Shown here: positions 86 to 44,273 of the stretch, piece after piece
Layout: each line of letters opens with the position of its first letter
Numbering within the stretch: the stretch's first letter is position 1
Virus record (IMG/VR): IMGVR_UViG_3300036770_003135
Coordinates: 1-64,000 of that record
From: a virus
Length of the DNA stretch: 64,000 nt
Direction: 5' to 3' (one strand)
Notes under the pieces: generated by a model
What the model was told of the DNA's origin: nothing
Database searches by the model: none
What the model saw: only the letters and a program-made list of their open reading frames with translations
Position numbers and translations under genes: made by a program

Positions 86-112
86 TTGTATAAAATTTTT
101 GATACTAAATAT

Positions 113-158
113 AACAAAGAATATGTGCCATTAAAACGAACACATATTCTCAACCGTT
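113..158. repeat. attC-like hairpin A1 (short loop)
   Basis: AAC-aa-agaatatgtg...cacatattct-caacc-GTT; loop contains cattaaaacg. Confidence 0.8.
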
Positions 159-171
159 ATAATTAATAAAA

Positions 172-249
172 TTATTTAGGTATCCAAAACCCTTGAATTG
201 TCTGTTTTACTTCAATAAATACTATTCCGTTTGCTGTTCTTATCCACAT
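172..249 (-). CDS. 25-aa cassette micro-protein MWIRTANGIVFIEVKQTIQGFWIPK
   Basis: ATG-TAA ORF fills the module between GTT 156 and AAC 268; not in the ORF track. Confidence 0.5.
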   Translation of the reverse strand: MWIRTANGIVFIEVKQTIQGFWIPK

Positions 250-265
250 AATTTTACGATTTTAT

Positions 266-348
266 AACAAGGTATATGTGAAATACCTTATAAAGTTTTT
301 ACTAAATTTTAAGTTTGTTGTTAGGTACTTCACATATACCCAACCGTT
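266..348. repeat. attC-like hairpin A2
   Basis: AAC-aa-ggtatatgtgaaatacct...aggtacttcacatatacc-caacc-GTT. Confidence 0.8.
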
Positions 349-360
349 ATGAGTAATAAT

Positions 361-606
361 TTAAAATTTATTTATTATTTTATTTTCAATATACTCTTTA
401 ACTTTTGATGGTAATATTTGTGTTGGAAATGACCCTTCAGCACCAACATACATTTCACTACTTGCGACATCACTTGCATCTATTTTATAATATTGTTCAT
501 CTGGTGAGCATATTGTTACATGAGTTACCTCACCCCATCTACCAGAACCAACCCAATAAAACCATAGGTCATTTCCAATATGTATTTTTCTTTTCGTTTT
601 TTTCAT
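361..606 (-). CDS. Cassette hypothetical protein (81 aa)
   Basis: ORF fills module 346-637. Confidence 0.7.
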   Translation of the reverse strand: MKKTKRKIHIGNDLWFYWVGSGRWGEVTHVTICSPDEQYYKIDASDVASSEMYVGAEGSFPTQILPSKVKEYIENKIINKF

Positions 607-634
607 AGGTATAAATTTTAAATTACATACTTAT

Positions 635-680
635 AACAGCAAATATATTACATTAAAACGACAATATATTTGCGACCGTT
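635..680. repeat. attC-like hairpin A3 (short loop)
   Basis: AAC-a-gcaaatatatt-acattaaaacgac-aatatatttgc-gacc-GTT. Confidence 0.8.
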
Positions 681-690
681 ATAAGTAATA

Positions 691-960
691 TTATTTTTGT
701 TTTGAGTCCATATATTCTTTCACATAAGCAGAATGTGTGTCTCGCATATTCTGTTCAAGTTTTCTCATTTCATCAATATGTTCTTTTGTAAGTTCAAATA
801 TTCTCATTTCAGATTGCTCGACACCCATTCCAAATGTTGGATGTTGTGGTTCGTTACGTTTTTCGTCTTCTGTTAATTCTCTTGAATTGTTTGTTTTGAA
901 TGTTTCATATGATTCTCTCGCATCCAACATTTCTTTCTTTAATTGTTCTAATTTTTCCAT
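691..960 (-). CDS. Cassette hypothetical protein (89 aa, helical/charged)
   Basis: ORF fills module 678-1009. Confidence 0.7.
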   Translation of the reverse strand: MEKLEQLKKEMLDARESYETFKTNNSRELTEDEKRNEPQHPTFGMGVEQSEMRIFELTKEHIDEMRKLEQNMRDTHSAYVKEYMDSKQK

Positions 961-1006
961 AATTTATATTTTTTTAATAGGTAAAACAAAAATAATACTC
1001 ACTTAT

Positions 1007-1092
1007 AACAAGGTGTATAAGTAATTTTTTTACAAAGGTACGAATAAGTTTTGGTATTTCCAAATAAAAAACTACATATACACCCAACCGTT
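1007..1092. repeat. attC-like hairpin A4 (promoter in loop)
   Basis: AAC-aa-ggtgtataagtaattttt...aaaaactacatatacacc-caacc-GTT. Confidence 0.8.
1033..1064 (-). promoter_or_regulatory. Bacteroidota primary-sigma promoter (-33 TTTG / -7 TAnnTTTG)
   Basis: Minus strand reads TTTG-gaaataccaaaacttattcg (20 nt)-TACCTTTG, an exact consensus with correct spacing. Confidence 0.75.
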
Positions 1093-1100
1093 AGCAGAAA

Positions 1101-1277
1101 TTACCGCCTAAACTTTTTACTTCTATCCTTTGGGTATAGTGCTTTCATTAACTTTTTATGTTCTTTTTCACTTATCTGCGATGTCGGTAACTCTCCGCTA
1201 ACAGCAGGTTTGTGAAATAAACCACTTTCGATTTCTCCGTAAGTTGGTAGTGATTTGAATGTTCTGTTATTCTTCAT
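1101..1277 (-). CDS. 58-aa chimeric cassette protein spanning a GTT junction (MKNNRTFKSLPTYGEIESGLFHKPA-V-SGELPTSQISEKEHKKLMKALYPKDRSKKFRR)
   Basis: Hand translation. ATG lies in the A5 loop after an A-rich leader; the junction GTT is the Val codon; the stop lies in the far arm of module 1090-1202. Confidence 0.6.
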   Translation of the reverse strand: MKNNRTFKSLPTYGEIESGLFHKPAVSGELPTSQISEKEHKKLMKALYPKDRSKKFRR

Positions 1278-1322
1278 ATATTTTAATTGTTAAATGTTTA
1301 CTTCACAAACCTGCGAAACGTT
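1200..1322. repeat. attC-like hairpin A5 (start codon and N-terminal coding sequence in loop)
   Basis: AAC-a-gcaggtttgtgaaataaac...gtttacttcacaaacctgc-gaaac-GTT. Confidence 0.8.
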
Positions 1323-1530
1323 ATAACCCATTCAACACATCTACAATCTTCTGTGAAATATCTTTTGGTAGTTTATCCCAATTCCAACTCATAAAGTTAT
1401 ATAAAACAATTCCTTCGTCTTCACATTCAATAGAAGATATTTCACCATCTTCATTAACAATCCAAGTTCTATCTAAAAAAGATGAACGGGCCGTGTAATC
1501 AACATTTTCGTTCTTATTATCTTTATTCAT
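1321..1530 (-). CDS. Cassette hypothetical protein (69 aa), probably a fixed hairpin/gene fusion
   Basis: Stop codon is the TAA of the TAAC core; start lies in the loop of degenerate hairpin A6. Confidence 0.6.
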   Translation of the reverse strand: MNKDNKNENVDYTARSSFLDRTWIVNEDGEISSIECEDEGIVLYNFMSWNWDKLPKDISQKIVDVLNGL

Positions 1531-1559
1531 ATTATTTAAGTTTTGTATTTCAATTTAGG

Positions 1560-1586
1560 AAAAAACTACATATATCCGTAACCGTT
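1560..1586. repeat. Half of attC-like hairpin A6 (partner arm eroded near 1485-1500)
   Basis: aaaaaactacatatatccgtaacc-GTT resembles the right arm of A4. Confidence 0.65.
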
Positions 1587-1605
1587 ATGCTTAATTTTAA
1601 AAATT

Positions 1606-1902
1606 TTATGAATTTGTTTTATGCTTCGCAATCCACTCATCATAAGTTAGTGTATTAGATTGTAAATACTTTTTAGCAATTTCAGCGTTATATTGTCTAT
1701 TTTCTTCCATTAAATTACCATCCCTAAACATTTCACCTGTTTTAATTGCTTTCCAATCTAAACCACCTTTCCATTCAACAATTAACATTTGAGACATTAC
1801 ATCTTTTAAATGTTCTTGTGTTGTTGTTTCGCTTTGCATATTTATAAAACCATCAGTTACTTGTTTCATATATGTTTCATATTCTTTTTGATATTCTCTC
1901 AT
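1606..1902 (-). CDS. Cassette hypothetical protein (98 aa)
   Basis: ORF fills module 1584-1940. Confidence 0.7.
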   Translation of the reverse strand: MREYQKEYETYMKQVTDGFINMQSETTTQEHLKDVMSQMLIVEWKGGLDWKAIKTGEMFRDGNLMEENRQYNAEIAKKYLQSNTLTYDEWIAKHKTNS

Positions 1903-1937
1903 TTTTTATTTGTATAAAATTTTTAAAACTAAAACAT

Positions 1938-1983
1938 AACAACAAATATATTGCATTAAAACGACAATATATTTGCAGAAGTT
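1938..1983. repeat. attC-like hairpin A7 (short loop)
   Basis: AAC-aa-caaatatattg-cattaaaacga-caatatatttg-cagaa-GTT; nearly identical to A3. Confidence 0.8.
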
Positions 1984-1993
1984 ATAGGTAATA

Positions 1994-2182
1994 TTAAAAT
2001 TTGCTTTTAACATCATCTACGAACTTTTGTAAACTTATTTCTTCATCATCCTGATATAGTTTGCCATCTTTTAATTCTGCTACTACGTCATCGCCATTCA
2101 TATAATTCCAAAAGTTTACAAAAGTTCTACCATCACCAACAACGTGAAGTTCGATTTCTATTTTTAATCTTTTTTCTTCCAT
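1994..2182 (-). CDS. Cassette hypothetical protein (62 aa), first gene of the array
   Basis: ORF fills module 1981-2207. Confidence 0.7.
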   Translation of the reverse strand: MEEKRLKIEIELHVVGDGRTFVNFWNYMNGDDVVAELKDGKLYQDDEEISLQKFVDDVKSKF

Positions 2183-2219
2183 ATCAAATTTTAATACATA
2201 CCTATATTACTCATTTTAT

Positions 2220-3074: not shown

Positions 3075-3923
3075 TTATAAATCTAATTTTAAATTAAAAA
3101 CTTGCGCAATTACATTCATAGGAATTCTAAACTCTTCAAATGTCCCATCCTCTTTCAATAATACGATTATCGCCCCAAAAAGTCCAATATTTTCATATTT
3201 ACTTCCAACCAACATTTTAAACAATAATCTCAAATATAATGGTAGTTGAACATAATAGTGACCCAAAGCATTATTGGGTAACTTATTGAAGGGGTATTTC
3301 ATCGGTTTTGTAAAATGGTTGGATTCAAAGTTTTTAGGTTTATTTGTTTTATAATCAGTTACTATCCAACCTATTTTATTTTTTTCTTCATTTTTTATTA
3401 ACCATAATTTATCTGGTTGTCCTGTATATTTTAATTCTGGATGACCTAAAACAGTTTCCGTATCAAATAAAAGTGCTTTTCTTTCTTTCATAAGATTTAA
3501 AAAGTTAATCCCAGCACTGACCATTCTATCACTCTTTAATATTTGGTCAAAATCACAATCAAAGATTGGTTGTCTAACCTCTTTCTTAATATCAAACATA
3601 TCAAGGGATTTTTGTTCCAATAAAAAGTGGGTTCTACTACCTAAGTTAGTTGAATATGTTCCGGCATCAGACCATTCTTTTAACAATTTTTGTTGTTCTT
3701 CAATATCACCTTTAGCTTTCTTTAATGCAATTTCTTCAGCTGGGAATTCATCATAATAGTTTTTAATTACTTTTGATACTGATTTCCAATCATCTCTAGA
3801 ATTACCATTAAGGTCTAACATAGTGTATTTGTGATGTTCTTCGTCAAACGAAAGTTTTAATTCTTTCCTTTTATCTTCCAAAAAACATTTAATTTCATCT
3901 CTTAATTCAATTAATTCATTCAT
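3075..3923 (-). CDS. PD-(D/E)xK exonuclease (Cas4/lambda-exo-like)
   Basis: SVS...GSRTH, E...GQPD...DYKT, and QLPLY motifs. Confidence 0.8.
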   Translation of the reverse strand: MNELIELRDEIKCFLEDKRKELKLSFDEEHHKYTMLDLNGNSRDDWKSVSKVIKNYYDEFPAEEIALKKAKGDIEEQQKLLKEWSDAGTYSTNLGSRTHFLLEQKSLDMFDIKKEVRQPIFDCDFDQILKSDRMVSAGINFLNLMKERKALLFDTETVLGHPELKYTGQPDKLWLIKNEEKNKIGWIVTDYKTNKPKNFESNHFTKPMKYPFNKLPNNALGHYYVQLPLYLRLLFKMLVGSKYENIGLFGAIIVLLKEDGTFEEFRIPMNVIAQVFNLKLDL

Positions 3924-4477
3924 ATGATTTTATTACTTTTTTTATAATTTTCGTTAGCCCATAGGGGTTGTAAATTAGTATAATGTGATAAACGATAAAC
4001 ATCTTCAATTGTTTGAGCTTGAGATATTGGTATTTTGTGGTCAATATGCCACCCATAAAATCCAAAGTTTTCCCAACTCATCCCATCTTTAAATTGTTGT
4101 TCTAAATACATTTTCAATTCATTTGGGGTACAACCAACAAAATCTATAGTTTTATTCAATGAAGTATTAAAATTCTTACTTTTTAAGAAAAGTTTCAATC
4201 TATTTCTTACAGAAATTTTAATCTTATAAATAAGGTCATTATTTCTACGTTTTGTTTCTCGTAAATTTCTGTTTTTTTTCGTTATATCTTTATTTTTTAA
4301 TTGATAATTGGTTTGTCTTTCAATTTCTTTTTTTTGATTTTTGTAATAAAAATTTTTGTATTCCCCTGACGTACATAAACGACATCGATATCTCAACCCA
4401 TCTTTTGAATATTTATCCTTATTAAATTCACAAAGTGATTTTTCAACCCCACATTTTTTACATACTTTTGTTTCCAT
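3920..4477 (-). CDS. HNH endonuclease with N-terminal Zn finger
   Basis: CKKC...CRLC; WHIDHKIP...HYTNLQPLWANENYKK. Confidence 0.85.
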   Translation of the reverse strand: METKVCKKCGVEKSLCEFNKDKYSKDGLRYRCRLCTSGEYKNFYYKNQKKEIERQTNYQLKNKDITKKNRNLRETKRRNNDLIYKIKISVRNRLKLFLKSKNFNTSLNKTIDFVGCTPNELKMYLEQQFKDGMSWENFGFYGWHIDHKIPISQAQTIEDVYRLSHYTNLQPLWANENYKKSNKII

Positions 4478-6791: not shown

Positions 6792-8720
6792 ATGGCTAAT
6801 TACGGCTTTTACGTAGCAAATACAGGTAGTACACTTTATAGTGGATTCACATTCTTGGACTCACAAGGAAATAATGTTACAATTAATATACCACCAAGTC
6901 AAACATTTTATGTTAGTGCTAGTGATGTAATTACAGGTTCAACTTACACCAATTTAGACATAACATTAATAGGTACTTTAGATATTAACTACGATTTTAA
7001 GACGTGTTGTAGTGCTGATTTTTTCTCTATTGATTTACCGAATTCATTATCTGGACTTGCTAACACATATTATTATGTTTATTACGCGGCATTTTCTAGT
7101 AGCTCAAATGTTGGTTATGGTTGTTATAACATAACTCCAGGTGGTCCATCATATTCTTATGTTACTGCATTATCTTTTGACGATTTAACCCCTTATGTTA
7201 ATTGTACTGATTGTACCAACACAAATCAATGTAATATAGATGAATGTTGTTTACTCCTTAGTGTTGAATATAGTGGGGGTTATTATTATAGGACTTTATT
7301 CAACGAAGGTATTATAAATGGTAGACAATTTTATACTTTCTCAAATATAACTGGAGGTACAATTGTTATGTATTGGAGTCCTGGTGGTGAATGGAATATG
7401 GACAATATAACCACTTCAGTTGCTAGGGGTTCAGGTAGTTTAACTACAGGATATTGTCCTTCATTTACTTTAACAACGATAGATAATGCTTTAAATTGTT
7501 TAAGTGATTTAACGGGTTTAACAATTAATCTAAGTTCAGAACTCATTTCTTGTTCAGGTTGTTCTCCAATATATTGTATAAACAATACTGGGTTAGGATA
7601 TGATGATACTTTTTTATCCGCAGGTACTCATAACTCCGAAACGTATTGGTCAGGGGTAACAAATGGTTATTTAATTTATTTTACAACTGGTGGAACTTGG
7701 TGTTTATCAACCATATTGGATGGGGTTTGTTTATTAGAAGGACCTTATCCTTGTATTTCAAGTTGTCCTGATTTATGTGATGACTATGTTTTTAGTGGAA
7801 ATTGTCCAACACCTACACCAACACCTACTATTAATTGTTCCGTATTGGACTTTAGTGCAATATTTGATTGTGAGGTAACTCCAACACCAAGTGTTACTCC
7901 GACTAATACAGTAACACCAACAGTTACACCAACACCATCAACAACACCATTGTGTCCTTTTATTAATGTTGATGTAACAATTACTGGTTATACTCCAACA
8001 CCAACTCCAACACCAACTGTAACTCCTACTTTAACACCAATTATTGATAGACCTTGTAATATAATAGGTAATGTTAATTATACAACAATTGAAAATCAGT
8101 TAATTTGTCCAGTATCAAGAAGATTTGTTGATTGTTCAAATGGTCAGATTTATTTCACTAATAGTGGAATTTCAACACCATCTGGTGATACATTAACACC
8201 ATTATTACTATTTAAAGCTGATGTTGATGGTGTTTCAAAATGTGTTGTTTATACTGGTTTGGACTATGATAATAGTCCGATAAACTCAATAACTTTGGTT
8301 GATGGACCTTTAGGTGATTTAAATATTATTCCTGATTGTTCTCCTTGTACTCCTGATGTATCACCAACACCAACACCATCACCAACTTTAAGTCCAACAC
8401 CAACATTGACATTAACACCAACATCGTCATCAGCAATTGGGTTTTATACATATAAAGAATGTGGTTCTAGCTCTTATATAATTCAAACAAATCCAGGACC
8501 TACTACATCCGTTGGTTCAATATTTAGAACAGCATCAGGTTCGACTGGACTATGTTTTGAATATATTTCTTATAGTTTAGGTTATCCTTCATTACCACCA
8601 AGTTCATCATATACTTATTGGACTGGTAATTATTTCCCAACTAGTGGTATATTATATTTCCCAACTTGTACTGATTGTATTTTTGTAACAAATGGTCAAA
8701 GTTCTCCAATTGAAACTTAG
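6792..8720 (+). CDS. Cys-rich putative fibre/decoration protein with Pro-Thr linkers
   Basis: Several (PT)n tracts and many Cys; S/T/G-rich. Confidence 0.6.
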   Translation: MANYGFYVANTGSTLYSGFTFLDSQGNNVTINIPPSQTFYVSASDVITGSTYTNLDITLIGTLDINYDFKTCCSADFFSIDLPNSLSGLANTYYYVYYAAFSSSSNVGYGCYNITPGGPSYSYVTALSFDDLTPYVNCTDCTNTNQCNIDECCLLLSVEYSGGYYYRTLFNEGIINGRQFYTFSNITGGTIVMYWSPGGEWNMDNITTSVARGSGSLTTGYCPSFTLTTIDNALNCLSDLTGLTINLSSELISCSGCSPIYCINNTGLGYDDTFLSAGTHNSETYWSGVTNGYLIYFTTGGTWCLSTILDGVCLLEGPYPCISSCPDLCDDYVFSGNCPTPTPTPTINCSVLDFSAIFDCEVTPTPSVTPTNTVTPTVTPTPSTTPLCPFINVDVTITGYTPTPTPTPTVTPTLTPIIDRPCNIIGNVNYTTIENQLICPVSRRFVDCSNGQIYFTNSGISTPSGDTLTPLLLFKADVDGVSKCVVYTGLDYDNSPINSITLVDGPLGDLNIIPDCSPCTPDVSPTPTPSPTLSPTPTLTLTPTSSSAIGFYTYKECGSSSYIIQTNPGPTTSVGSIFRTASGSTGLCFEYISYSLGYPSLPPSSSYTYWTGNYFPTSGILYFPTCTDCIFVTNGQSSPIET

Positions 8721-8732
8721 ATATTTATCAAT

Positions 8733-9032
8733 ATGACAACCATTCAATTTAATACGATTACTGGATTGAACCAACCATACTCAATTTACATTTGTGATGT
8801 TTATGGGTTAAATTGTATTTTAGTTGGGTATTTTGCAACAAATGTTCCACCAACTAATACCTTTGTTTTACCACCTCAATTTAATTCAGCACCAGCAATT
8901 GGTGTGAAAGTTATAACAAGTGATGGGTGTGAAAAATTTAAGGTGTTATATTGTAGTGACGATAATAAAGATTTTATGGATTTGGAAGATTTCTTTTTTA
9001 TGGATGGTATTGGTTATTTCTTTATGTCCTAA
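8733..9032 (+). CDS. Small beta-sandwich putative virion protein
   Basis: PYSIYICD...C paralogous to PFDIYLCD...C of 6573-6788. Confidence 0.6.
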   Translation: MTTIQFNTITGLNQPYSIYICDVYGLNCILVGYFATNVPPTNTFVLPPQFNSAPAIGVKVITSDGCEKFKVLYCSDDNKDFMDLEDFFFMDGIGYFFMS

Positions 9033-9054: not shown

Positions 9055-10686
9055 ATGGCATTTCTTACAGATAGAACTTTAGCGACAGGGGTTACATTAA
9101 ATGATTTAATTCATATTGTAATAACTGGTGATACATCTCAAAATCCTGCTGGTTCTTCATATAAAGCAACAATTTCTCAAGTTACAGATTTAGTTAATTC
9201 AATTGTTATTACTGGGGGTACTTATAATCCAATAACTGGAGATATAACTTTTACCAATTCTTCTGGTGGTACTTTTGTTGTTAATGGGTTTGTAACAGGT
9301 TATACTGATACATATGTAACTGGGGGTACTTATTCTGTAGGTACTGCTGTGTTTACTAATTCTTCTGGTGGTACTTTTAATGTTAGTGGATTTACTGAAC
9401 CATTTACTGGTGGAAGTGGTAATTGTATAACAGATTTTTATGTTACAAACATATATGGTTGTTCTCCTATAACAATACAATCTGAAACAAAATTTTTTAA
9501 TAACTTTGCAACAGGTACTTTGAGTTTTTCACAAGGTCAAGGTAGTCAAGCAAGTGGTGATTATAGTATGAGTCAAGGTTATGAGAGTAAATCAATTGGT
9601 GATTATTCTCACGCTGAAGGACTTGGTACTCAATCACAAGGTAACTATTCTCATAGTGAAGGTAGAGAAACTATTTCATTAGGGGTTTATTCTCATTCTG
9701 AAGGATATCAAAGTGATTCAATTGGATTATATTCTCACGTTGAAGGTGAATACTCAATAAGTAGTGGTAGAAGTTCTCACTCTGAGGGTTATTACTCACA
9801 ATCAATTGGGGGTTATTCCCACGCTGAAGGTGGTTATTTTGATGGTGTTACAACTTTTAGTGGTGGTACTTCAATTGGGTTAGGTTCTCATGCAGAAGGT
9901 AGAGAAACAATTGCTAGTGGTAATACATCACATGCTGAAGGTCGAGAAAGTATTTCAATTGGTAGTAACTCACACGCAGAAGGATTACAAACAATTTCAT
10001 TAGGTGCTAGTTCTCATTCAGAGGGTCGTGAAACTAATACAGAAGGTGATTTTTCACACTCTGAAGGATATCTAACAAAATCAACTGGAGGTTATTCTCA
10101 CGCAGAAGGACAAAGTACCCAAAGTATTGGACTTGGTTCTCATGCTGAAGGATTATCATCTATATCTATCGGTAAAAATTCTCACGCTGAAGGACTTTAC
10201 ACAATTGCAAGTGGTGATTATCAACATACTCAAGGAAAATACAACTTAACCTCAACAACGGTTTCAGCATTCATTATTGGTAATGGTTCTAGTAATGTAA
10301 GTAGAAGTAATTTAGTTTTTGCCGCAAACGATGAATTCAATATATATGGTGATTTAAATGTTACTGGGTTTATAAATGGTAATATTTCAGGTCTTAGTGA
10401 ATTTATTTCAACAACTGGTGTTACAACTTCAGCTTTTACTATAACATCAGGTATAACATATTGGGGAATAAATTATAATGGAAATGTTGATGTATCAATT
10501 CCTGACCCAACGGGTATTGATGGTTTAAAATTAATAATAAAAGATGAGGGGGGATATTCAGGTTCATATAGAATAAGATTAACACCATTAGCAGGTACAA
10601 TTGATGGAAATTCTTACGTTGACATGAACATAAACTATATGTCACTAACATTGGTGACAAGAAATAATAATTGGTGGTTAATATAA
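9055..10686 (+). CDS. Tail fibre/adhesin-like protein with YadA-head-like 14-aa SHAEG repeats
   Basis: About 15 G.xSH(A/S)EG repeats, AFIIGNG closure, and a C-terminal IKDE..G...IDG...W fibre-tip-type domain. Confidence 0.7.
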   Translation: MAFLTDRTLATGVTLNDLIHIVITGDTSQNPAGSSYKATISQVTDLVNSIVITGGTYNPITGDITFTNSSGGTFVVNGFVTGYTDTYVTGGTYSVGTAVFTNSSGGTFNVSGFTEPFTGGSGNCITDFYVTNIYGCSPITIQSETKFFNNFATGTLSFSQGQGSQASGDYSMSQGYESKSIGDYSHAEGLGTQSQGNYSHSEGRETISLGVYSHSEGYQSDSIGLYSHVEGEYSISSGRSSHSEGYYSQSIGGYSHAEGGYFDGVTTFSGGTSIGLGSHAEGRETIASGNTSHAEGRESISIGSNSHAEGLQTISLGASSHSEGRETNTEGDFSHSEGYLTKSTGGYSHAEGQSTQSIGLGSHAEGLSSISIGKNSHAEGLYTIASGDYQHTQGKYNLTSTTVSAFIIGNGSSNVSRSNLVFAANDEFNIYGDLNVTGFINGNISGLSEFISTTGVTTSAFTITSGITYWGINYNGNVDVSIPDPTGIDGLKLIIKDEGGYSGSYRIRLTPLAGTIDGNSYVDMNINYMSLTLVTRNNNWWLI

Positions 10687-10687
10687 T

Positions 10688-11905
10688 ATGGCATACATTT
10701 TTAATAATTCAATAAAATACTCAGATAGTCCAAACCTAGATGCGTTTGGTAGATTAAGAACTGCTGCAGTTCAAAATCTTTTGGATATAAAACATACTTA
10801 CGATAAAAATCCTCTTCAAGTTAATGAAGTTACTGCAGGTACTGCCACATCCGTATTTAACCAACAATATGCAAGGGTAAGAATGTCAACTTCGGCTAAT
10901 AACGATTTAGTTATTCGTCAGACAAAAACTCACCCAATTTATCAACCAGGTAAAAGTCAATTATTTGAAGCAAGTTTTAGTAACTTTACAATTGAAACAA
11001 ATGTTATTAAAAGAGTTGGTGTTTTTCAATCAACAACAGGAACACCATATAATTCAGTCTTTGATGGATTATTTTTGGAAAGTAATGGTGTTACAAGTGC
11101 AATAACTTTTAACATTTATTTAAGTGGTTCTTGTACATATAGTGCAGATACTTCTATTTGGAATAATACTCAATTTGACCCCAATAATTTTGATTGGTCT
11201 GATGTTAATTTAATGACAATTGATTATCAATGGTTAGGTGTTGGTAGAGTTAGATTTGGTATGGTATTATCAGGACAAACAATATATTTTGTAGATTATA
11301 CAGCTGCAAATAATATATCAACTGTTTATATGTCTTCACCCAACCAACCAATAAGATATGAAATTAGACAAGATGGTGTTGGTTCAGGTTATTTTGATAT
11401 GATTTGTTCTCAAGTTTCAACTGAAGGAGCATTAAATGGTTTGTATTCAACAGTTTCAGTTCCATATACAGCAACAACAACATTAGATCCATCTGGGACT
11501 AAATTTCCATATATTGGTTATAGATTAAAAGAATCTTATAAGTCAGTTACATCACAATATAATTCAGTTAGTATATTAAACACATCTAATGACAATTATT
11601 TATTAACAATGGAATTTAATCCTACTTTATCTTATACCCCAACTTGGGTAGATATTCCAAATTCACCATTCCAATATAGTTTGGGTACTGGTAACACACA
11701 TACTGTAACATCAACAGGTCACGTTATGACATCTTTGATTGGTGAGGCTGGTACATCAGCTTTAACTACAACAAAACTTGATGACAATCAAATCAGAGTT
11801 GGTTCAAATGTTAATGGTACTTTGGATGAAATGTGGTTATGTATAACACCATTAGGAGCTAACGCATATTTTCTTGGTACTGCTGATATTTTGTATTATT
11901 TATAA
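10688..11905 (+). CDS. Putative virion structural protein (lectin-like beta fold)
   Basis: DAFGRLR...YQPGKS...IDYQWLGVGRVRFG pattern recalled from large-phage structural proteins. Confidence 0.55.
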   Translation: MAYIFNNSIKYSDSPNLDAFGRLRTAAVQNLLDIKHTYDKNPLQVNEVTAGTATSVFNQQYARVRMSTSANNDLVIRQTKTHPIYQPGKSQLFEASFSNFTIETNVIKRVGVFQSTTGTPYNSVFDGLFLESNGVTSAITFNIYLSGSCTYSADTSIWNNTQFDPNNFDWSDVNLMTIDYQWLGVGRVRFGMVLSGQTIYFVDYTAANNISTVYMSSPNQPIRYEIRQDGVGSGYFDMICSQVSTEGALNGLYSTVSVPYTATTTLDPSGTKFPYIGYRLKESYKSVTSQYNSVSILNTSNDNYLLTMEFNPTLSYTPTWVDIPNSPFQYSLGTGNTHTVTSTGHVMTSLIGEAGTSALTTTKLDDNQIRVGSNVNGTLDEMWLCITPLGANAYFLGTADILYYL

Positions 11906-11966
11906 AGTCAAATTATCCTCTATATTTTTAATAAAAAAATAATTGTATTTATAGTAAAATTTATAT

Positions 11967-14063
11967 ATGTCTTGTATTTGTCCAGCAGGTTATAGTGCCA
12001 ATACTACCAATAATTTTTGTGAAAGAATTTTAGTTACTGCGGTAACAACAAATCCAACTTCGTTTACTATTGTTTCAGCAACACCAAGTCAATATTGGAG
12101 TACTGGTGGGGCTGTTTTTTATGAGGATATTACTAATTTTAATTTTCCAATAAAAATTTCAGGTTCTTCTGGTGTTGTATATACAACAAATAACACACAA
12201 TTATTCAATACATTGTTTTGGGTTGACCAATCATCTAATGTATTAAGTCCAATTGTCGGAGGACCAAGTAGTGGTATTACTTGTACAAGTTTAGGAACGT
12301 TTAATAGTGCAGTTGGTTGTATATGTAATAATTGTTATGGTCCTCAATTTTTAAGAAATAACATTTGGGGTGGTAATGGTAATCTTTCTTTTGGCCGATT
12401 AAATAATACTGCAGTTTGGGCAAATACTTCACCTGATTCATATGGTAACTATCCACCATTAAACCAATGGATTGGTTTTAGTTATTGTATTGACATTCCA
12501 AATTCAGAAACATATTATATTGGTTTAGGTGGTGACGATGAGTTTAGATTTAAAATTAATGGTCAAGAAATTGTAACATCGTTTGGTGGATTTAAACCAA
12601 ATCTTCCCGCTCAACCAAATACTGAATTCGCATTTAGATATTGGTCAGTATTTCCATACACATTTAATCCTGGATTTAATGTTATTGAAATGGAAGGATT
12701 AAACAAATTATATTCCGCAGGTTTTGGTGTAGAGATATATTCTGGTAGTGTATCAGCTCTAACTGCGGTAACAACAACATCAGCATTAAGTGCTTTGACA
12801 ATTTTTTCAAGTATAGATTTAGTTGGCCAAACATTTGATTTAGGTAATAATGGTGAGTCAGGTTATTCCTGTCCTGAAGGTTATTCATTAGTTGTTTGTG
12901 ATGGTCCTCCGTATTGTGCTCAAATATTACAAACACCTTGCCTTGGTAGTCCAACACCAACACCAACACCTACAATAACACCAACACCTACACCAACACC
13001 ATTACCTCTTGTATTTGTTAATGAGTGTGAACCTATTACATTGTTGTCAATGAGTGCAACTTGTTCTATAGTTAATCTTACAAATAAAACAGGTTCAACC
13101 AAAAGTATGGTTGTTAATATAACAGGTGGTACACCACCTTATACAATTAATTGGAGTAATGGTAGTATTACATCTGGTATATCGCCACAATCAATAAATA
13201 ATTTATCAGCTGGAACTTACACAGCTAATATTGTAGATTATTGGGGTGATTTTAGTGCGACAACAACTTGTACTATACCACCAGAAGCAATAAGTTGTGA
13301 ACGAGTTTTTATTATACCTAATTTAAAAACAGAATGTAATGAAGGTTTAGGGACAGGATTTTTAGATTTTACTATTAATGGTGGTACTCCACCATATACT
13401 TATTCTGGTAATGTGAACGGAGTAGTTACAACAATAACTAATCCACAACCAATAAATGATGGTGATATTGTAAATGTAATAATTACTGACTATAATGGTT
13501 GTGTTTCCAATGTTTATTCAAAAAGAATAAGTTGTCCATCAACTCCTGAACCATTAAATTGCACAACAACTAGTTGTCCTAATGGCAATACTTTTGTTTT
13601 TGATATTTCAGCTACAACTATTTCTCTTACAACAAATATTTCAGTTATATTTGAATCTAAATTATCGTCACCAAATGCGACATCAGTTAGGGGTAGTTAT
13701 AAAATAAGTAATATTGATTTTCCTAATACATTTTTAAAAGATTTCCAATTAGGAATAATAGATCGTAAAAATTATTATAAAGGGTCTGATGGTGCACCAC
13801 AAATTGAGCTATCAAACTATTTAGAAATTGGTTTTAATCAATTGACACCACCAACACTAACAAATTCAGATTCACCTTGGAATTTAACAATTACACCTTA
13901 TCCTAGTTTTGGAGGTTACACACAACCAACACCATTTGAAGAGGGTACTATACTTACAATAGAAATTTCACTATATGATGAAGACTATTGTGTTCATAAA
14001 GGGAGTGGTTTTTTAACAATTCCTAATGATACATTAACAAATACATTATCAATTAGTTTTTAA
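11967..14063 (+). CDS. Cys-rich adhesin-like protein (PA14-like module, PT linker, SprB-like repeats)
   Basis: CPAGY/CPEGY, GGDDEFRFKING, and GGTPPYT repeats. Confidence 0.6.
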   Translation: MSCICPAGYSANTTNNFCERILVTAVTTNPTSFTIVSATPSQYWSTGGAVFYEDITNFNFPIKISGSSGVVYTTNNTQLFNTLFWVDQSSNVLSPIVGGPSSGITCTSLGTFNSAVGCICNNCYGPQFLRNNIWGGNGNLSFGRLNNTAVWANTSPDSYGNYPPLNQWIGFSYCIDIPNSETYYIGLGGDDEFRFKINGQEIVTSFGGFKPNLPAQPNTEFAFRYWSVFPYTFNPGFNVIEMEGLNKLYSAGFGVEIYSGSVSALTAVTTTSALSALTIFSSIDLVGQTFDLGNNGESGYSCPEGYSLVVCDGPPYCAQILQTPCLGSPTPTPTPTITPTPTPTPLPLVFVNECEPITLLSMSATCSIVNLTNKTGSTKSMVVNITGGTPPYTINWSNGSITSGISPQSINNLSAGTYTANIVDYWGDFSATTTCTIPPEAISCERVFIIPNLKTECNEGLGTGFLDFTINGGTPPYTYSGNVNGVVTTITNPQPINDGDIVNVIITDYNGCVSNVYSKRISCPSTPEPLNCTTTSCPNGNTFVFDISATTISLTTNISVIFESKLSSPNATSVRGSYKISNIDFPNTFLKDFQLGIIDRKNYYKGSDGAPQIELSNYLEIGFNQLTPPTLTNSDSPWNLTITPYPSFGGYTQPTPFEEGTILTIEISLYDEDYCVHKGSGFLTIPNDTLTNTLSISF

Positions 14064-28624: not shown

Positions 28625-31600
28625 TTAATCAGTTATAACATTAAAGTTTATCCATTTAGTTGCAAATCTATCCCAAGCAGTTTTACCCTTTTTTAGACCA
28701 AAATAAAAATGAAATGGTGCACCAACAGTTATTGTTCTACCTAATGGAGTGTTCAAGTTAATTGTTGTAACATCAATTGAATACTCCCCATTATTTTCTT
28801 GATAAATATAACCTTTATAATTTATACTATTCAGTGAATTATTACTCCTAAAATATCTTGATGTAGAATTAATCCTATCTAAAGATTGGTATGGGTATTG
28901 GAAAAAAGATATACCATCTAATTTATCCGTAAACCAATTATTCTTTTGTGAACCAAAAATACTATCGTCTGTATTTAAATCATTTGAATCAATATTCCAT
29001 TGGTAGAATGGAACTATTTGGGTGAAAACATTAATACTACTCAAAGAACAACTATTAGTTATTGGTAGATTTTCATTAATTATCGTTCTCCTTGGTGAAA
29101 TAAAATCTCTAATTTGAGTATCGGATGAAAAAAATATTCCTATTATTGCATCTGAACTTTCCGCATTATTAAAGTAAATTGGATCCTGAGATGGATTAGG
29201 TCTTGCAGGATAATTTTCTGGTTCAAAATCTGAAATACCTAACTCAGATGTAATTGATATTAATTGTGCGTAATCACCATCAACAAACCTTTTACCTCTC
29301 TTATTGAAAAAAGTATTAATACTTGCCCCATTTGTACCAAACAATAATGCTAAATAACTCGTATTTACTAATCTACTTATAATGAAAAGATTTAGAATAT
29401 CAGACACATCAGTATAAGTCGTTCCTTTTAATTGATTAACAACATAACCATCAAATTCATCAGACATAACTAATTCTTGAATATATTCAGACCTTGGTCC
29501 TAAATCCATCATAGTTGTTGGGAAATTTAAATGTCTAATATTTCCACCATATGAACCAAAAAGTCCTTCTAATGGTGCTCTACGTCTTGGTGCACCAATA
29601 AAACCAACACCCATTTTATAAGGACTTGACCTATAATAGAAATTGTTTGTTGGATGTAATATCATTGTATTTTTACAATACAAACTATAAGGTTGATTTG
29701 CTTGATTGATATTATTTGTTAATGGTGAAGTAAAAAATCTATCATTTTTAAAGGCAAAAGCGTATAAAGTACCATTCACCCAATTATTAGTAAAAATATG
29801 TGACCATACATTTCTACAAGCCCCAAAAGTTATTTTAGTTCTAGATGTCCATTCAGATAACAATCTAAAATCTTTAAAGAGTGATAAAAATATTTTTGAA
29901 ACTAAAACATAACATCCATTTTTCATTATTTTACGTCCACCAAAAGAATAACAATTATCCGTATTTGGTAATACTGATATTTCACCATTATTAGAATCAT
30001 AACATTCAAGCGGAATTAAATTTGGACATTGAAATGTTTTAATTACATTATCACCGATTGGTGCTTGAGTGTTACTATCCCCTGGGTCTTCTCCAACATC
30101 ATTAGATATTGTTTGATTATTTTGTGAGGTTGATACAACACCATCTTCACTAAACAAAAATACCGCAAATCTGTCATTGGTGTGTAATGGGAAATAATTA
30201 TCTAATGATGACGAAAGTGATGTTGATGTTGGTAACCTATCAGTTCGCATAACAATCTGTCTTCCAGATGAACCTGGTGTTGTTGGATATGTAAAAGTTA
30301 TATTGTATTTTGGTGAATAATAATAACCAACAAATCTTGGTGACCTACTACCCCCACAAAGTCCTATTGGTTGCCAATAAAGAAAAGGACCCCAAGGACC
30401 TTGGAACATATATGAACCACCATCTACTATTTCTCCTTGGAAATACCCTCTGTTATTATTTGATGTTAACGATTTATTTGGTGTTGGTGAGTAATAAATA
30501 CATGTAATATTGTATTGGTCAAACTGCCAAGAAAAACCATTCTGATAGTTTGCTGTAATACTAGGACCCGTAGGTGGTGCAGTTGTAATAGGTGCAATTC
30601 TAACTCTAACACCAAATGTTGGGTTTATTTCACTAACTTGATCAAGAGTTGGTCTAGATAATGATGGTCTATATGTTTGTGTAGAAAAGTCTAAACTACT
30701 ATAATATGATGGTAAAGAAGTTGTAAATCCACTAAATTCATCACCTGGCTCAAAATGATATGAATTATAATATAATTGACCTAATGTAGTTGTATTTGTT
30801 AAATTTGATGATAAACTATTATGTCTTACTGGTTTATATGCACCTTGAATTGGTATATTAAGTTTATAATTATTGCCAGTAACAACAACTTGACCCCAAC
30901 TCTTACCAAATAATTTACTTAAGTCATATTTAACTTCACCCTTTGTTGAATACGGGTCAACTCCTCTAATCAAGAAACAAATTACTTGATTACTATAATC
31001 ATTAAAATTAGTAATAGGGGTTTCTGGATAATAACCACTATTAGTTATAGTTCCGTTAGCATTAATTCTGTAAAAAAACATTACGTTACTCAAATACCTT
31101 GAATTAAATGTCAATGGGTCAGAATTATTACATTGAGTAACAAACTGACTATACGTCATAGCAGTAATAACTTGATAATATTCAATATCAATTGGAAATT
31201 TGGCATATTCAACATCATTAGTTCCTTGTGTTATGTTATATGTTGTCGCAGTATAAGTACCACTTCCATTAGGGTGTGCAAATTGGACTGTAATTGTTGA
31301 TAAACCATTATTAATGGTTGTTCCAGTTATACTTGATGTACCATAAACATTTAATGAAGTATTACCTGTTAAATTAGGGTCACCTGAAAGTAACGGGTCT
31401 TGGAATGAAACGATTTGACCTGGTACTAATTCAGACAATTTACTAGGTAAACAAGATATTGCTAAAACATTATCATAATGAAATTTATTACTATTTTGAG
31501 TAGGTCTAAAACTAGTTCTAATACGATTATACCCACCCCCAGGATTATTACCTTGTGGATTATTTATAGGATCAGTAATTACATTATCAAAATATTTTGC

Positions 31601-33736
31601 TTTAACATTAAATAAATTTAATCTTTCACCCAATGTTAAGCTTGAAGTCCCAAAAGTATCTCCATCAAATACAAAAGAATTTGGTACTGGTGTTAATTCA
31701 TTTGGGGGGTCATTAAAACCTATACCACTTATTAATTGTTGTAAGTTATTAGTTAAATCAGAATCAGCATTTGTAATACCTGAATATAAAACTGATGTGG
31801 TATATGGTGATAAATAAGCATTTAGATTAGCGTCTTCAATCGCTTCATTTAGATTATCACCTGTAACTTCTTGTGTGACTTCAGATTGGTCTGACGCTGG
31901 TATTGATTCAGGTTCACCGCAATTACAAAGTTCACAATCTGGATATGTTAAATTTGGTATTTTTAAACTTGTAAAATATTTGTACAACGTCAAAAGTGTT
32001 TTAATGGTATTACCATAATCCTCTCCAGTTGGACAATTAACTCTAAAACCAATAGAACGAGCAAATCTACAAAGTAAAATGAATATTCCAAATATTATAG
32101 AATAAATTAAAGCTAAAATGGGACCGATTAAAAAAATAACAAAGGCTAAAATATGAACAACAATTAATAATATATTAATTGTTGGATTAAATACTACCAT
32201 CATTAACACAAACAATAGATAAACTATATCAAATCTTTGAATGGAATCATTCGTTGGGAATTTATTATTATCACTTTCACAACTTTCATCCAATATATTT
32301 TTGATTGATATTGTTCTGTTTGGTAAATAACCTCCTCTAAATTGGTCAATTAATTGAGATACTGTGTAAACTTTATTAAACGACATCAAATAGAACCTAT
32401 CTTGACAATCAATAGCTTCTTGAATCATTGTTAAACCTTGACTCGTACCACTATAACCATAATCATTCCAATCTAAACTAAAACTATATGAATTTATAGC
32501 ATATAAATTTTGTAAAGAAGACACAGGGTCAATCAATGGGTCATCATCATTATTAGTCCATCCGTATTCCTTAATATTTGGTACTAAAAAATAACCTCGT
32601 TTGAGTGTTTCTGATAATTTTGGAGATTGATTCCATTTAATTTTAAATCTATATTTCCCTTTAGTAGGTATTCCTTTTTTGGGGTCATCAGATAAAATTC
32701 TTTCACCAAATTCATTTGTTACTACATAATCTAAATTCATTGGGACATCAACCAACCATGTACCATTATCATCAATAACTTGGCCACCTTGGTCTAAATC
32801 AAATAATTCTAATATAGGTCTACCTAATTCGTCATTAAAAATTGTTTGTCTAATTGCTAATATTTCACCAGGACTTGTTACCAAATTACATAATTCACCT
32901 TGTCTTGTTTTAGGTTTACAATTTCTAGCCAAGAATTGCGTATCTGTTGATGAAAATATTGACCCCATAAAAATTGCGGTTGGGGTAATATTAATTGTTG
33001 CTTCAGCCGTTAAATCTATATCTGTCCTTGTAATACCCACAACACATACTCCTTCTTGACCCCATAATGGTTCAACTTCAACTTTTCGATTAATTGAAAT
33101 AATTTGCGGTAATTCATTAAGATTTGTTGATGACCTAAAAGATGTTCCAGCTACTTGAGCTTCAGTTGCTCTTCCCATCCTAATTAAATCTTGTGGTGAT
33201 AACGAAAATTCCCCAATATCAGATAAATCAACATCAAAATGTAATGTTTGTGTTCCAATTGGGACACCAAAAATCATAAAATCACCACTATCATTAGTTC
33301 TTGCTGTGAACTTATAATATTTATCAAAAACTTCAATATATGCTGGGTTAACTAGAACATCCTCCTTTTCAAAGAATGTTCCAGTTGGTACATGGGTACT
33401 ATATGATTTAATATATGGTAGTAAATTATACCTATAACCATCTTCATTAATATCTGTTGGTGATTTATATGGATATAAATCTAAAATTGTAGGATTTTCT
33501 TCATCTTGAGTAGATAAAGGTATGAAAACGGATACCTTTACATTTGGTACACCAAAACCATTATTTACAGTTACTCTACCAACTACGACACCATAATCCG
33601 AACATTGTCTGGTATAAACTTCACTTTGTAAAAATTTTAATGAAAGTATTTCTAAAAATTCATATTCTTGTTCCAGCTTAACTTGTATTGCCTTATCAAT
33701 ACCGACTTGAGTTCTTATTCTATAAGAATTTGACAT
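28625..33736 (-). CDS. Large baseplate-associated protein (1703 aa) with N-terminal carboxypeptidase-regulatory-like domain and internal hydrophobic segment
   Basis: VVGRV...GVPNVKVSVF...TNDSGDFMIFGVPIG; ~55-aa hydrophobic stretch. Confidence 0.55.
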   Translation of the reverse strand: MSNSYRIRTQVGIDKAIQVKLEQEYEFLEILSLKFLQSEVYTRQCSDYGVVVGRVTVNNGFGVPNVKVSVFIPLSTQDEENPTILDLYPYKSPTDINEDGYRYNLLPYIKSYSTHVPTGTFFEKEDVLVNPAYIEVFDKYYKFTARTNDSGDFMIFGVPIGTQTLHFDVDLSDIGEFSLSPQDLIRMGRATEAQVAGTSFRSSTNLNELPQIISINRKVEVEPLWGQEGVCVVGITRTDIDLTAEATINITPTAIFMGSIFSSTDTQFLARNCKPKTRQGELCNLVTSPGEILAIRQTIFNDELGRPILELFDLDQGGQVIDDNGTWLVDVPMNLDYVVTNEFGERILSDDPKKGIPTKGKYRFKIKWNQSPKLSETLKRGYFLVPNIKEYGWTNNDDDPLIDPVSSLQNLYAINSYSFSLDWNDYGYSGTSQGLTMIQEAIDCQDRFYLMSFNKVYTVSQLIDQFRGGYLPNRTISIKNILDESCESDNNKFPTNDSIQRFDIVYLLFVLMMVVFNPTINILLIVVHILAFVIFLIGPILALIYSIIFGIFILLCRFARSIGFRVNCPTGEDYGNTIKTLLTLYKYFTSLKIPNLTYPDCELCNCGEPESIPASDQSEVTQEVTGDNLNEAIEDANLNAYLSPYTTSVLYSGITNADSDLTNNLQQLISGIGFNDPPNELTPVPNSFVFDGDTFGTSSLTLGERLNLFNVKAKYFDNVITDPINNPQGNNPGGGYNRIRTSFRPTQNSNKFHYDNVLAISCLPSKLSELVPGQIVSFQDPLLSGDPNLTGNTSLNVYGTSSITGTTINNGLSTITVQFAHPNGSGTYTATTYNITQGTNDVEYAKFPIDIEYYQVITAMTYSQFVTQCNNSDPLTFNSRYLSNVMFFYRINANGTITNSGYYPETPITNFNDYSNQVICFLIRGVDPYSTKGEVKYDLSKLFGKSWGQVVVTGNNYKLNIPIQGAYKPVRHNSLSSNLTNTTTLGQLYYNSYHFEPGDEFSGFTTSLPSYYSSLDFSTQTYRPSLSRPTLDQVSEINPTFGVRVRIAPITTAPPTGPSITANYQNGFSWQFDQYNITCIYYSPTPNKSLTSNNNRGYFQGEIVDGGSYMFQGPWGPFLYWQPIGLCGGSRSPRFVGYYYSPKYNITFTYPTTPGSSGRQIVMRTDRLPTSTSLSSSLDNYFPLHTNDRFAVFLFSEDGVVSTSQNNQTISNDVGEDPGDSNTQAPIGDNVIKTFQCPNLIPLECYDSNNGEISVLPNTDNCYSFGGRKIMKNGCYVLVSKIFLSLFKDFRLLSEWTSRTKITFGACRNVWSHIFTNNWVNGTLYAFAFKNDRFFTSPLTNNINQANQPYSLYCKNTMILHPTNNFYYRSSPYKMGVGFIGAPRRRAPLEGLFGSYGGNIRHLNFPTTMMDLGPRSEYIQELVMSDEFDGYVVNQLKGTTYTDVSDILNLFIISRLVNTSYLALLFGTNGASINTFFNKRGKRFVDGDYAQLISITSELGISDFEPENYPARPNPSQDPIYFNNAESSDAIIGIFFSSDTQIRDFISPRRTIINENLPITNSCSLSSINVFTQIVPFYQWNIDSNDLNTDDSIFGSQKNNWFTDKLDGISFFQYPYQSLDRINSTSRYFRSNNSLNSINYKGYIYQENNGEYSIDVTTINLNTPLGRTITVGAPFHFYFGLKKGKTAWDRFATKWINFNVITD

Positions 33737-38617: not shown

Positions 38618-39568
38618 TTAAAAATCGTCTGTAAATGAAATCGTTTCGTTCAATTTAGCTTTTTGGTATTCCATTGTTCTTGATTCAAAGAAATTACCCT
38701 TTGTTTCAACCGCAATTTGTTCCATAAACTTGAATGGTTGTTCAACATTGAAATGTTTACTACATCCCATCTTTATTAGTAACCCATCAACTACAAATTC
38801 TAAATATTGTTTCATTAGATTTGAGTTCATTCCGATTAGAGAAACTGGTAAAGATTCTGTGATAAATTCCTTTTCAATTTCCAAAGCTGACAATAGAATT
38901 TCTTTAATTCTTTTTTCACTTGGTTTATTTTCAACGTGATTATTCAATAAATGAATTGCGAAATCACAATGTAAGTTTTCATCTTTAAAAATCAATGAAT
39001 TAGCATTACAAAGTCCTTGCATCACACCTCTTGATTTCAACCAAAAAATTGAACAAAATGAACCTGAGAAAAATATACCTTCAACAGCAGCAAAAGCAAC
39101 CAATCTTTCTTGAAAAGATGCTTTCTCAATCCAATCCAACGCCCATTTGGCTTTCTTTTGAACTGCGGGTAATCTATCAATAGCATTGAAACACTCGTCT
39201 TTTTCTTTTGGATTTGATATGTAAGTATCAATTAATAAAGAATACATTAAAGAATGGATATTTTCCATCATTAATTGAAATCCGTAAAAGAATTTTGCTT
39301 CAGGGTATTGAACTTCCCTATAAAAGTTCTCAGCCAAGTTCTCATTGACAATTCCATCAGATGCTGCAAAGAATGACAATATGTTCTTAATGAAATATTG
39401 TTCGTTCTCTGACAAGTTCTGCCACTCTCTGATATCACCAGTCAAGTCAACCTCTTCTGCAGTCCAAAATGCCGCTTGGTGTTGTTTATAGAATTCCCAA
39501 ATATCATTGTATTGAATGGGGAATATCACAAAACGATTTGGGTTAATTGTTAAAATTCTTTCTTTCAT
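38618..39568 (-). CDS. nrdB: Ribonucleotide reductase class Ia beta subunit
   Basis: [45 protein letters not shown]. Confidence 0.97.
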
Positions 39569-42242: not shown

Positions 42243-43250
42243 TCATTTTTTTGTTTTAAAATTGTGTTTTTCTTTTCTTGTAAGTTTCAAAAATGGTTTT
42301 AAAAAATTTACCCAAGCATCATCACCTTTTGGAAGAAATTTAAAGAACCCATCTTCCATCATCATCTTTATTAGATTTCTATGTCCTCTACCATCAGGGT
42401 CTAATGTCTCCTTATAATAAAGTTCAACCATCTCTTTTCCTTCATCGTCAATTAATGGTTGGGACAAATCTACAATCTTTTTATTGATTTGAAAGAATTC
42501 ATCACCATATATTCCTGTCTTTGTTTTTCCTGTTAAAAGGTTTTTAATGGTATTGTTTTCTTTGTCTTCTTTCAAAAGGTTTTCAGCCTTGGTTAAAATA
42601 TCGTCAATTGTTACGTCTTGTTCAAGTAGTTCAGGAAAAAATTTAAATAAAGTTTTATCACCCAAATAATATATCCCATCAATATTATCTGATTTATCAC
42701 CACATAATACCTTGTATGTCAAAATATTATTATGTGGAATTGAATGTTCTTTTAATTTAATCTTATCCCCATTTTTATATAATTGTTTTGCAGATGGTGA
42801 ATAAATTGATACATTTGGGGATATAAGTTGTGTTAAATCCTTATCAGATGAGAATATTGTAATTGATTCATCTGTTGCAATCTGACAATAATAAGCAATT
42901 AAATCATCAGCTTCATTATTCTCAATATTAACTTGTCTAATAAACATTTCTTCCAAATATTGTTTAACCCTTTCCTTTTGATATGAGAAAGATTCTTCTT
43001 TAAACACATTGGAATCAACTACCCTATTTTCTTTATATTGGGGATATATAATCTTTCTTTTACTTGAATTACCTTCACCATCCCAAAAAGCAATTACTTT
43101 ATCAAAATTGTATTCTTCAATAAACCTTTTGGTTGTATTTAAAAAGTGCCAAATACCCCCAATATGATTACCATTGTGGTAATATTCTTTAACCCCATGA
43201 AATCCAATCTTCATTAGGTTATTACCATCAATTAATAATGTTTTTGTCAT
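42243..43250 (-). CDS. 5'-3' exonuclease / flap endonuclease (PolI N-terminal, T4 RNase H-like)
   Basis: LLIDGNN, YKENR, EADD, SSDKDLTQL, GDKSDNIDG. Confidence 0.92.
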   Translation of the reverse strand: MTKTLLIDGNNLMKIGFHGVKEYYHNGNHIGGIWHFLNTTKRFIEEYNFDKVIAFWDGEGNSSKRKIIYPQYKENRVVDSNVFKEESFSYQKERVKQYLEEMFIRQVNIENNEADDLIAYYCQIATDESITIFSSDKDLTQLISPNVSIYSPSAKQLYKNGDKIKLKEHSIPHNNILTYKVLCGDKSDNIDGIYYLGDKTLFKFFPELLEQDVTIDDILTKAENLLKEDKENNTIKNLLTGKTKTGIYGDEFFQINKKIVDLSQPLIDDEGKEMVELYYKETLDPDGRGHRNLIKMMMEDGFFKFLPKGDDAWVNFLKPFLKLTRKEKHNFKTKK

Positions 43251-43259
43251 TAATTTTTT

Positions 43260-44267: not shown

Positions 44268-44273
44268 ATTTTT

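Follow-up and report, generated by a model that had tools for sequence, protein, structure and literature searches.

Sites of the integron type are usually regarded as joints outside the coding sequence, by which genes are moved as wholes. Folding of these sites in classical integrons takes place on the non-coding (bottom) strand. In the ORF-11 region of attI1 and in cassettes of the aacA4 type, a start-less cassette uses the start of the neighbouring site, and the resulting N-termini depend on the context.

Clusters of attC sites without an integrase (CALINs) have been reported in virulent phages (Qi 2023; PMC9892861). In the part of that report on which we draw, 2-4 sites were predicted per phage and treated as parts of bacterial integrons carried by phages, and P12002L_attC1 is the only one of six sites without a reported verified IntI1 recombination junction. 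Long arrays (up to 20 sites), loops with coding sequence, fusions of leader and body, and a Xer-like recombinase of phages are not mentioned in the same part of the report, and nothing was found in the literature on start codons and leaders inside such sites. The closest analogue in function is provided by the PeSLs of T4-type phages, which are composed of a promoter, a stem-loop, a Shine-Dalgarno sequence and the ATG of the next gene, and which are shuffled as modules, with mini-circles, by homologous recombination (PMC2839356; PMC4122927).

The stretch analysed here (the window) comprises 64,000 nt, the first 64 kb of a 102,792-nt IMG/VR phage contig (IMGVR_UViG_3300036770_003135) that is estimated to be 35% complete. 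At its left end lies an array of hairpins and small genes, which is an integron-like cassette system of Bacteroidota-type phages. A 58-aa ORF of this array is probably a real, translated small gene composed of two separately mobile modules.

Structure of the 58-aa ORF and its two modules

The ORF (1101..1277, minus strand, taken from the ORF list) consists of a leader (codons 1-26), a tail (codons 27-58) and a stop codon. The preliminary description had placed its start in the loop of the hairpin module A5 and its end in the far repeat of the following module, and both placements were confirmed. The ATG of ORF 1101-1277, at 1277-1275, is situated between two 19-nt arms, behind an A-rich leader. 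The frame then crosses the 3' arm and the core, where GTT is read in frame as Val26 within P-A-V-S, and the stop codon (1103-1101) lies inside the repeat 1090-1107.

The attC-like module A5 (1200..1322, minus strand) was delimited by arm scan, hairpin scan and folding. On the coding strand, it is ordered as AAC (the complement of 1322-1320), a 5-nt spacer, the 5' arm (1314-1296), a 73-nt loop, the 3' arm (1222-1204), a 1-nt spacer and GTT (1200..1202, minus strand), the last being codon 26 and the junction of leader and tail. The arms (1204-1222 and 1296-1314) are 95% complementary, and their single mismatch is G.T on the coding strand. Within the loop (1223..1295, minus strand) lie the A-rich 5' leader and codons 1-18, of which the ATG is the first. 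The predicted fold energy is -33.9 kcal/mol (z -3.8) for the coding strand and -33.8 kcal/mol (z -4.4) for the other, and the fold was matched by none of 200 shuffles.

The tail is encoded by a start-less module of 113 nt (1090..1202, minus strand; residues 27-58 and the stop in the far repeat), which is bounded by GTT...AAC and bears inverted repeats of about 17 nt (1090-1107 and 1185-1202). That this module has only a late internal start was correctly noted before, since Met44 is the sole in-frame ATG, GTG or TTG behind GTT. No match for the 58-aa protein or for the other array ORFs was found in Pfam and PHROGs, the protein atlas returned only weak unnamed matches, and Rfam gave no credible family. 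The AlphaFold model of the protein is of low confidence (mean pLDDT 66), with a single helix at residues 37-47, in the tail, and a leader of little structure.

The hairpins of the array resemble integron attC sites in being imperfect palindromes in which only AAC and GTT are conserved, the stems are variable but complementary, an unpaired spacer is asymmetric and the loop is variable. They are unlike integron sites in that their loops hold promoters, starts and up to about 50 codons, the site itself is a part of the protein, and GTT serves as a second breakpoint.

The cassette array and its surroundings

The array that contains the ORF (112..2206, minus strand) comprises six clear AAC...GTT hairpins and an eroded seventh (general form TAAC...GTTA), all at 112-1984, which alternate with gene modules having terminal inverted repeats of their own. 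The next hairpin module downstream of the tail, A4 (1007..1092, minus strand; identified from the sequence, the hairpin scan and the fold), carries in its loop a promoter motif of the Bacteroidota type (TTTG, 20 nt, TAnnTTTG). The left-end genes of the window are on the minus strand, and the array continues off the left end of the contig, along the direction of transcription. As in integrons, the genes are small, mostly orphan and in one orientation. The hairpin scan detected no further cluster of this kind elsewhere in the 102,792-nt contig.

The GC content is about 29%, and genes for ribonucleotide reductase, a DnaB-type helicase and virion proteins are present. The scan for sigma-70 promoters and terminators remained at chance level, with sigma-70-like sites no commoner than in shuffles, and megablast of the first 5 kb against GenBank phages gave no match. 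Upstream of the array lie genes for a Dam-type N6-adenine methyltransferase (2220-2672), a 74-aa zinc-ribbon protein (2672-2896) and a phrog_298 exonuclease (3075-3923), followed by a gene with an HNH-like motif read from the sequence (3920-4477). A second module of exactly 113 nt occurs at 156-268; its first 12 letters are the same as those of the zinc-ribbon body of locus L156, a stop follows after four codons and an ORF of only 25 codons remains, so this module may be a decayed body.

A CALIN is defined by at least two attC-type sites with no integrase nearby, and here six hairpins at 112-1984 were accompanied by no tyrosine recombinase in 103 kb. The site P12002L_attC1 (30008-30056, minus strand), which stands between two methyltransferase genes with no integrase nearby, has the same architecture as the 48-nt hairpin class of the window and an identical 11-nt loop.

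Relatives of the two halves

The preliminary description had proposed that recombination at GTT can exchange the N- and C-terminal parts, in which case each half should be found joined to a variety of partners, the break lying at the Val codon and the junction showing a recurrent V(S/I/M), whereas constant co-occurrence of the halves as one conserved gene would speak against it. In the protein databases, 30 relatives were obtained by a word-indexed search and 32 by an exhaustive search of 1.8 billion cluster representatives, which gave 52 distinct proteins. Full-length relatives, at 79-91% identity, account for only five of the 52, which excludes the constant co-occurrence of the two halves; at 50% clustering, a single full-length cluster was present in the whole library. 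Twenty relatives share only the leader, joined to about 13 different, unrelated C-terminal partner groups, and in 16 of these 20 the match stops directly after Val. The remaining 27 share only the tail and fall into about 25 unrelated N-terminal partner groups, whose parts are 11-90 residues long; most of them read V|SGQ, or V and a short conserved stretch, before the tail. Several of the partners of the leader are CxxC zinc-ribbon-like bodies without any Met. Since some bodies contain no Met and the tail has only Met44, such sequences can be made only as fusions. The expected pattern was thus found, including the recurrent junction among the database relatives, and the DNA contexts agree with it.

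A second GTTA is located 12-21 nt behind the first, within a conserved R-S-(E/G)-Q-L stretch (1185-1199 in the window; also in L124, L172, L175 and L177), and several unrelated bodies diverge only after it. This second GTTA may be another in-frame exchange point.

The DNA contexts were drawn from JGI metagenome and IMG/VR loci. The A5 hairpin was found behind five different genes and in front of four different bodies, the A5 module having other neighbours in L124, L149-L152, L154 and L156. Nucleotide similarity to the window is bounded by AAC and GTT, with variation in the 5-nt spacer. The tail module also occurs behind three further hairpins (L153, L155 and L175), which have unrelated arms, an ATG in their own loop and an in-frame join at GTT. 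In L172-L174 and L175, the loop reaches about 190 nt and accommodates a complete N-domain (45-49 codons); for one such N-domain, at least five different bodies were seen directly behind Val, among them the tail of the window. In L150, the leader ORF runs out of frame for 13 codons and ends just past an ATG that belongs to the following gene itself, which indicates that fusion is frequent and not universal.

Contigs from unrelated studies match single modules exactly (1199-1323, 1981-2206, 345-669 and 1583-1994). Such contigs break at the hairpins into module-sized pieces and are blind to rare junction variants. Contig depth is highest at the hairpins, which is what multicopy elements should show. 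A search of IMG/VR with the exact 16-mer of the A5 3' arm gave mostly chance matches and one real contig.

The comparison of seven DNA copies of the leader revealed 24, 30 and 96 differences at codon positions 1, 2 and 3, respectively, and the leader differs from that of L148 by five synonymous and no non-synonymous codon changes. The predominance of synonymous differences in the leader suggests that the 58-aa ORF is translated. None of the sequencing runs listed for the sequence is an RNA run. In L148 (1-360), the 5' arm and the untranslated leader are lost and the whole 58-residue protein is kept, with an ATG that overlaps the stop of the upstream gene (ATGA); a truncated homologous copy of A4 stands behind the tail. 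The coding sequence has therefore been maintained without the hairpin, and the fusion in L148 is by now an ordinary fixed gene.

The hairpin family beyond the window

The pattern of the 48-nt hairpin was found in more than 120 IMG/VR stretches. In total, 407 hairpins were identified in 154 loci, compared with 29 in the reversed-sequence control, and an array can comprise as many as 20 sites within 8 kb. The asymmetry of the spacers is conserved (4-5 nt against 1-2 nt), and the stems are unrelated in sequence between units. Three sizes, of about 48, 85 and 125 nt, can be distinguished, with loops that span 11 to about 190 nt. For the class of about 85 nt, the promoter motif was read in one example, A4 (1007-1092).

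Among 127 distinct long hairpins (105-140 nt), 96 have an ATG in the loop and an ORF that continues for at least 20 codons past GTT, 61 of them in frame 0 and 35 in frame +1; four more are in frame +2. The reverse-complement control gave 18 ORFs over the three frames (7, 7 and 4), and the ORF that leads from the loop into GTT cannot therefore be attributed to chance. Recurrent leader families precede unrelated bodies, including DNA methyltransferase cores, and the leaders of frame +1 are often lipoprotein signal peptides (e.g., in L034, L051, L076, L025 and L120). The core and the repeat are read as V-S-G-S in frame 0 and as a hydrophobic L-L-A-V-V in frame +1. Borrowed starts are isolated cases at attI in integrons, whereas here they are regular, with about three-quarters of the long hairpins carrying a start and with leader families that recur.

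A distant search with one hairpin retrieved only LR756500.1 (L157), an uncultured phage of 462 kb, in which an array of at least eight such hairpins extends from about 9700 to 13060. The cultured virulent Polaribacter phage P12002L (L171) carries short and long hairpins of the family around methyltransferase genes. Besides P12002L_attC1, they are located at 32224-32280, 32798-32924, 38036-38089, 38880-38935 and 39126-39244, all on the minus strand, and the long hairpin at 32798-32924 overlaps the start of an annotated 74-aa gene.

Recombinase genes

The profile search detected neither a tyrosine recombinase (PF00589) nor a Y1 transposase in the 103-kb contig. A hairpin transposase of the IS200/IS605 type was ruled out by the absence of Y1 transposase from the contig. 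Inversion switches acting on the inverted arms were also rejected, the loops of 11-70 nt being too short and no inverted copies having been seen. The array end at which a recombinase gene would be expected lies beyond the contig of the window, which is only about 35% complete.

In related phages, a tyrosine recombinase of the Xer/IntI clade (267-287 aa) is encoded by 10 of the 27 larger array-carrying contigs (L161-L170); in L168, for instance, its gene occupies 7957-8763. The hairpins are upstream of this gene and on the same strand in all ten; the array reaches the gene in nine, and in L162 the single upstream hairpin is some 2.6 kb away from it. The terminal site ahead of the gene is attI-like: an A/T-rich stretch comes after its AAC core, and there is no return arm. 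A recombinase of the Xer/IntI clade at the end of the array, beside a hairpin-less terminal site, is a feature that these relatives share with integrons, but in the phages the gene has the orientation of the array and follows it on the downstream side.

The best NCBIfam match of the recombinase is of the XerA type, at 184 bits, below the cut-off of 220, and the protein is also below the cut-offs of the XerC/D models. With the integron-integrase model, the score was 146-151 bits, short of the required 265, and the match fell into two stretches, a split which we read as a probable absence of the IntI-specific insertion. An integron integrase with the IntI-specific extra domain was thus not found, either in the contig, which is without PF00589, or among the recombinases of the relatives, which stayed below the cut-off. 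The gene is also missing from two of the four hairpin-carrying contigs that are at least 90% complete; the recombinase may therefore act in trans, or an Xer enzyme of the host may serve.

Breakpoints and the folding strand

The breakpoints were mapped by pairwise comparison of the hairpin flanks between loci. The break was on the AAC side in 67 pairs, where either the hairpin and body were constant and the upstream neighbour differed or the upstream gene was constant and both hairpin and body differed, compared with 15 pairs for the GTT side (about 4.5-fold). For long hairpins, the upstream neighbour changed next to a constant hairpin and body in 12 pairs, and no pair showed a new body next to a constant hairpin and upstream gene. 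These numbers indicate that the hairpin and its downstream body are the usual unit and that GTT is a minor exchange point. The arrangement differs from that of the integron cassette, in which the ORF is followed by its own attC, since here the hairpin is upstream of the gene and travels with the downstream body. The proposal of an exchange at GTT consequently holds on the evolutionary scale, as the partner groups and DNA contexts demonstrate, and is limited in so far as AAC is the commoner breakpoint. The family of the 58-aa ORF is a case of very productive GTT exchange.

Among 289 distinct hairpins, those of the window at 112-1984 included, isolated stem mismatches were G.T on the coding strand in 284 cases, compared with 49 cases in which the wobble is on the other strand (p ~2e-41), and in 274 of these 284 the G is in the 5' arm. 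This bias indicates that the selected fold is that of the mRNA or of the coding DNA strand. In contrast to integrons, it is thus the coding strand that is selected to fold, and the bias would fit a role at the RNA level as well as strand-specific folding of DNA.

Discussion

The partner groups and the DNA contexts show that the leader and tail modules have been re-paired many times at the GTT core, in frame, over evolutionary time, which would have given rise to chimeric small proteins. According to the model that we favour, one module is an attC-like hairpin of about 125 nt, whose loop provides the start and the first 18 codons, whose 3' arm encodes codons 19-25 and whose GTT is Val26, and the other is a start-less body of 113 nt that supplies a helical, basic tail of 32 residues and the stop codon. 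The modules would be exchanged by a site-specific recombination that acts on the folded hairpins. Its main crossover would be at the AAC that precedes the hairpin, the hairpin with its downstream body would be the usual cassette, and GTT would be a minor second exchange point. The enzyme would most likely be a small Xer-like tyrosine recombinase, such as is encoded downstream of the arrays of related phages, or an Xer enzyme of the host. As the mobile hairpin contains a start, it would double as a recombination site and as a portable start and leader cassette for start-less bodies. On balance, we consider exchange by a recombinase acting on folded sites to be the most probable mechanism. The absence of both a recombinase and a Y1 transposase from the contig, the absence of the recombinase from two of the four near-complete contigs, the G.T bias, which would suit an RNA-level role as well, and P12002L_attC1, a site of the same hairpin class for which the consulted part of the earlier report gives no verified IntI1 junction, are counted against it.

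The modules might also be shuffled without a dedicated enzyme, in the manner of PeSLs, by general phage recombination through cores of about 9-12 nt. The hairpins would then be mainly RNA-level regulators, serving as terminators or attenuators, processing sites or carriers of promoters and translation starts, and the breaks would fall in the cores because nothing else is shared. The selection of the coding strand for folding, as expected for RNA, the promoter motifs or translation starts in the loops, the breakpoints on both sides of the hairpin, the lack of a recombinase in half of the near-complete contigs and the precedent of the T4-type PeSLs are all in line with such shuffling, and the elements are likewise composite, intergenic and placed among small orphan genes in hyperplastic regions. 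However, PeSLs end at the ATG and encode no residues, whereas 14-49 codons lie within the present elements; PeSLs share a long conserved promoter sequence and have variable recombination points, whereas here only about 7-12 nt are common to unrelated modules and the breaks are at fixed triplets. Neither a sigma-70 early promoter nor long homology nor an end at the ATG, by which a PeSL is recognised, was found at this locus. The retention of AAC, GTT and the fixed asymmetric spacer while the stems differ looks like recognition of structure, the Xer-like gene is downstream of the hairpins and on the same strand in ten of the ten contigs that have one, and the gene modules keep terminal inverted repeats that would extend the stem in a circular cassette. 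Enzyme-free shuffling is for these reasons considered rather unlikely. An explanation to which we assign a still lower probability is that leader and body always form one cassette, cut only at AAC, and that the combinations arose at the birth of cassettes or through rare illegitimate events. It accounts well for the excess of AAC over GTT breaks (67 against 15 pairs, and 12 against none for long hairpins). In chromosomal integrons (Vibrio repeats), near-identical attC sites stand beside unrelated genes with no crossover there. Yet 15 pairs do break on the GTT side, and about 13 and 25 partner groups are joined at one nucleotide position, in frame; so many independent and precise joins are hard to obtain from illegitimate events. 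The second conserved GTTA moreover marks another recurrent break, which comes after R-S-(E/G)-Q-L.

It is very improbable that the leader serves only for regulation, as an upstream ORF to which translation of the next gene is coupled, the long in-frame fusions being tolerated by-products. The out-of-frame leader of L150, which stops just after the next ATG, is typical of coupling, the predicted structure assigns low confidence and little structure to the leader, and the leaders in front of methyltransferase cores are plain extensions. The Met-less bodies and the tail with Met44 alone are nevertheless makeable only as fusions, purifying selection acts on the amino acids of the leader, beyond its length or the position of its stop, and L148 has retained the full fusion after the loss of a hairpin arm.

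Within recombinase-driven exchange, GTT may even be an active second crossover at which phage populations continually make in-frame chimeras, of leader and body or of N-domain and tail; this extension is possible, but we hold it to be doubtful. If such a crossover is active, it would represent DNA-level exon shuffling for small phage proteins, with the 113-nt tail as a mobile protein-tag cassette and the loops as portable start and leader cassettes.

The joint described here is a part of the gene, since it supplies a start codon and a leader of 14-49 residues and its crossover triplet is a codon. Recombination could then build proteins from halves and switch on start-less bodies, which would be a compact route for the diversification of small phage accessory proteins, many of them resembling zinc ribbons, methyltransferase extensions or lipoprotein signals. 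These observations also bear on the birth of integron cassettes, in which a site has to be joined to a new gene. With Polaribacter phage P12002L, in which these hairpin classes occur, a host-phage pair in culture is available for bench work on the idea.

Outside the array, three consecutive ORFs of 335 aa on the minus strand of the window (42243-45281) look like tandem paralogues.
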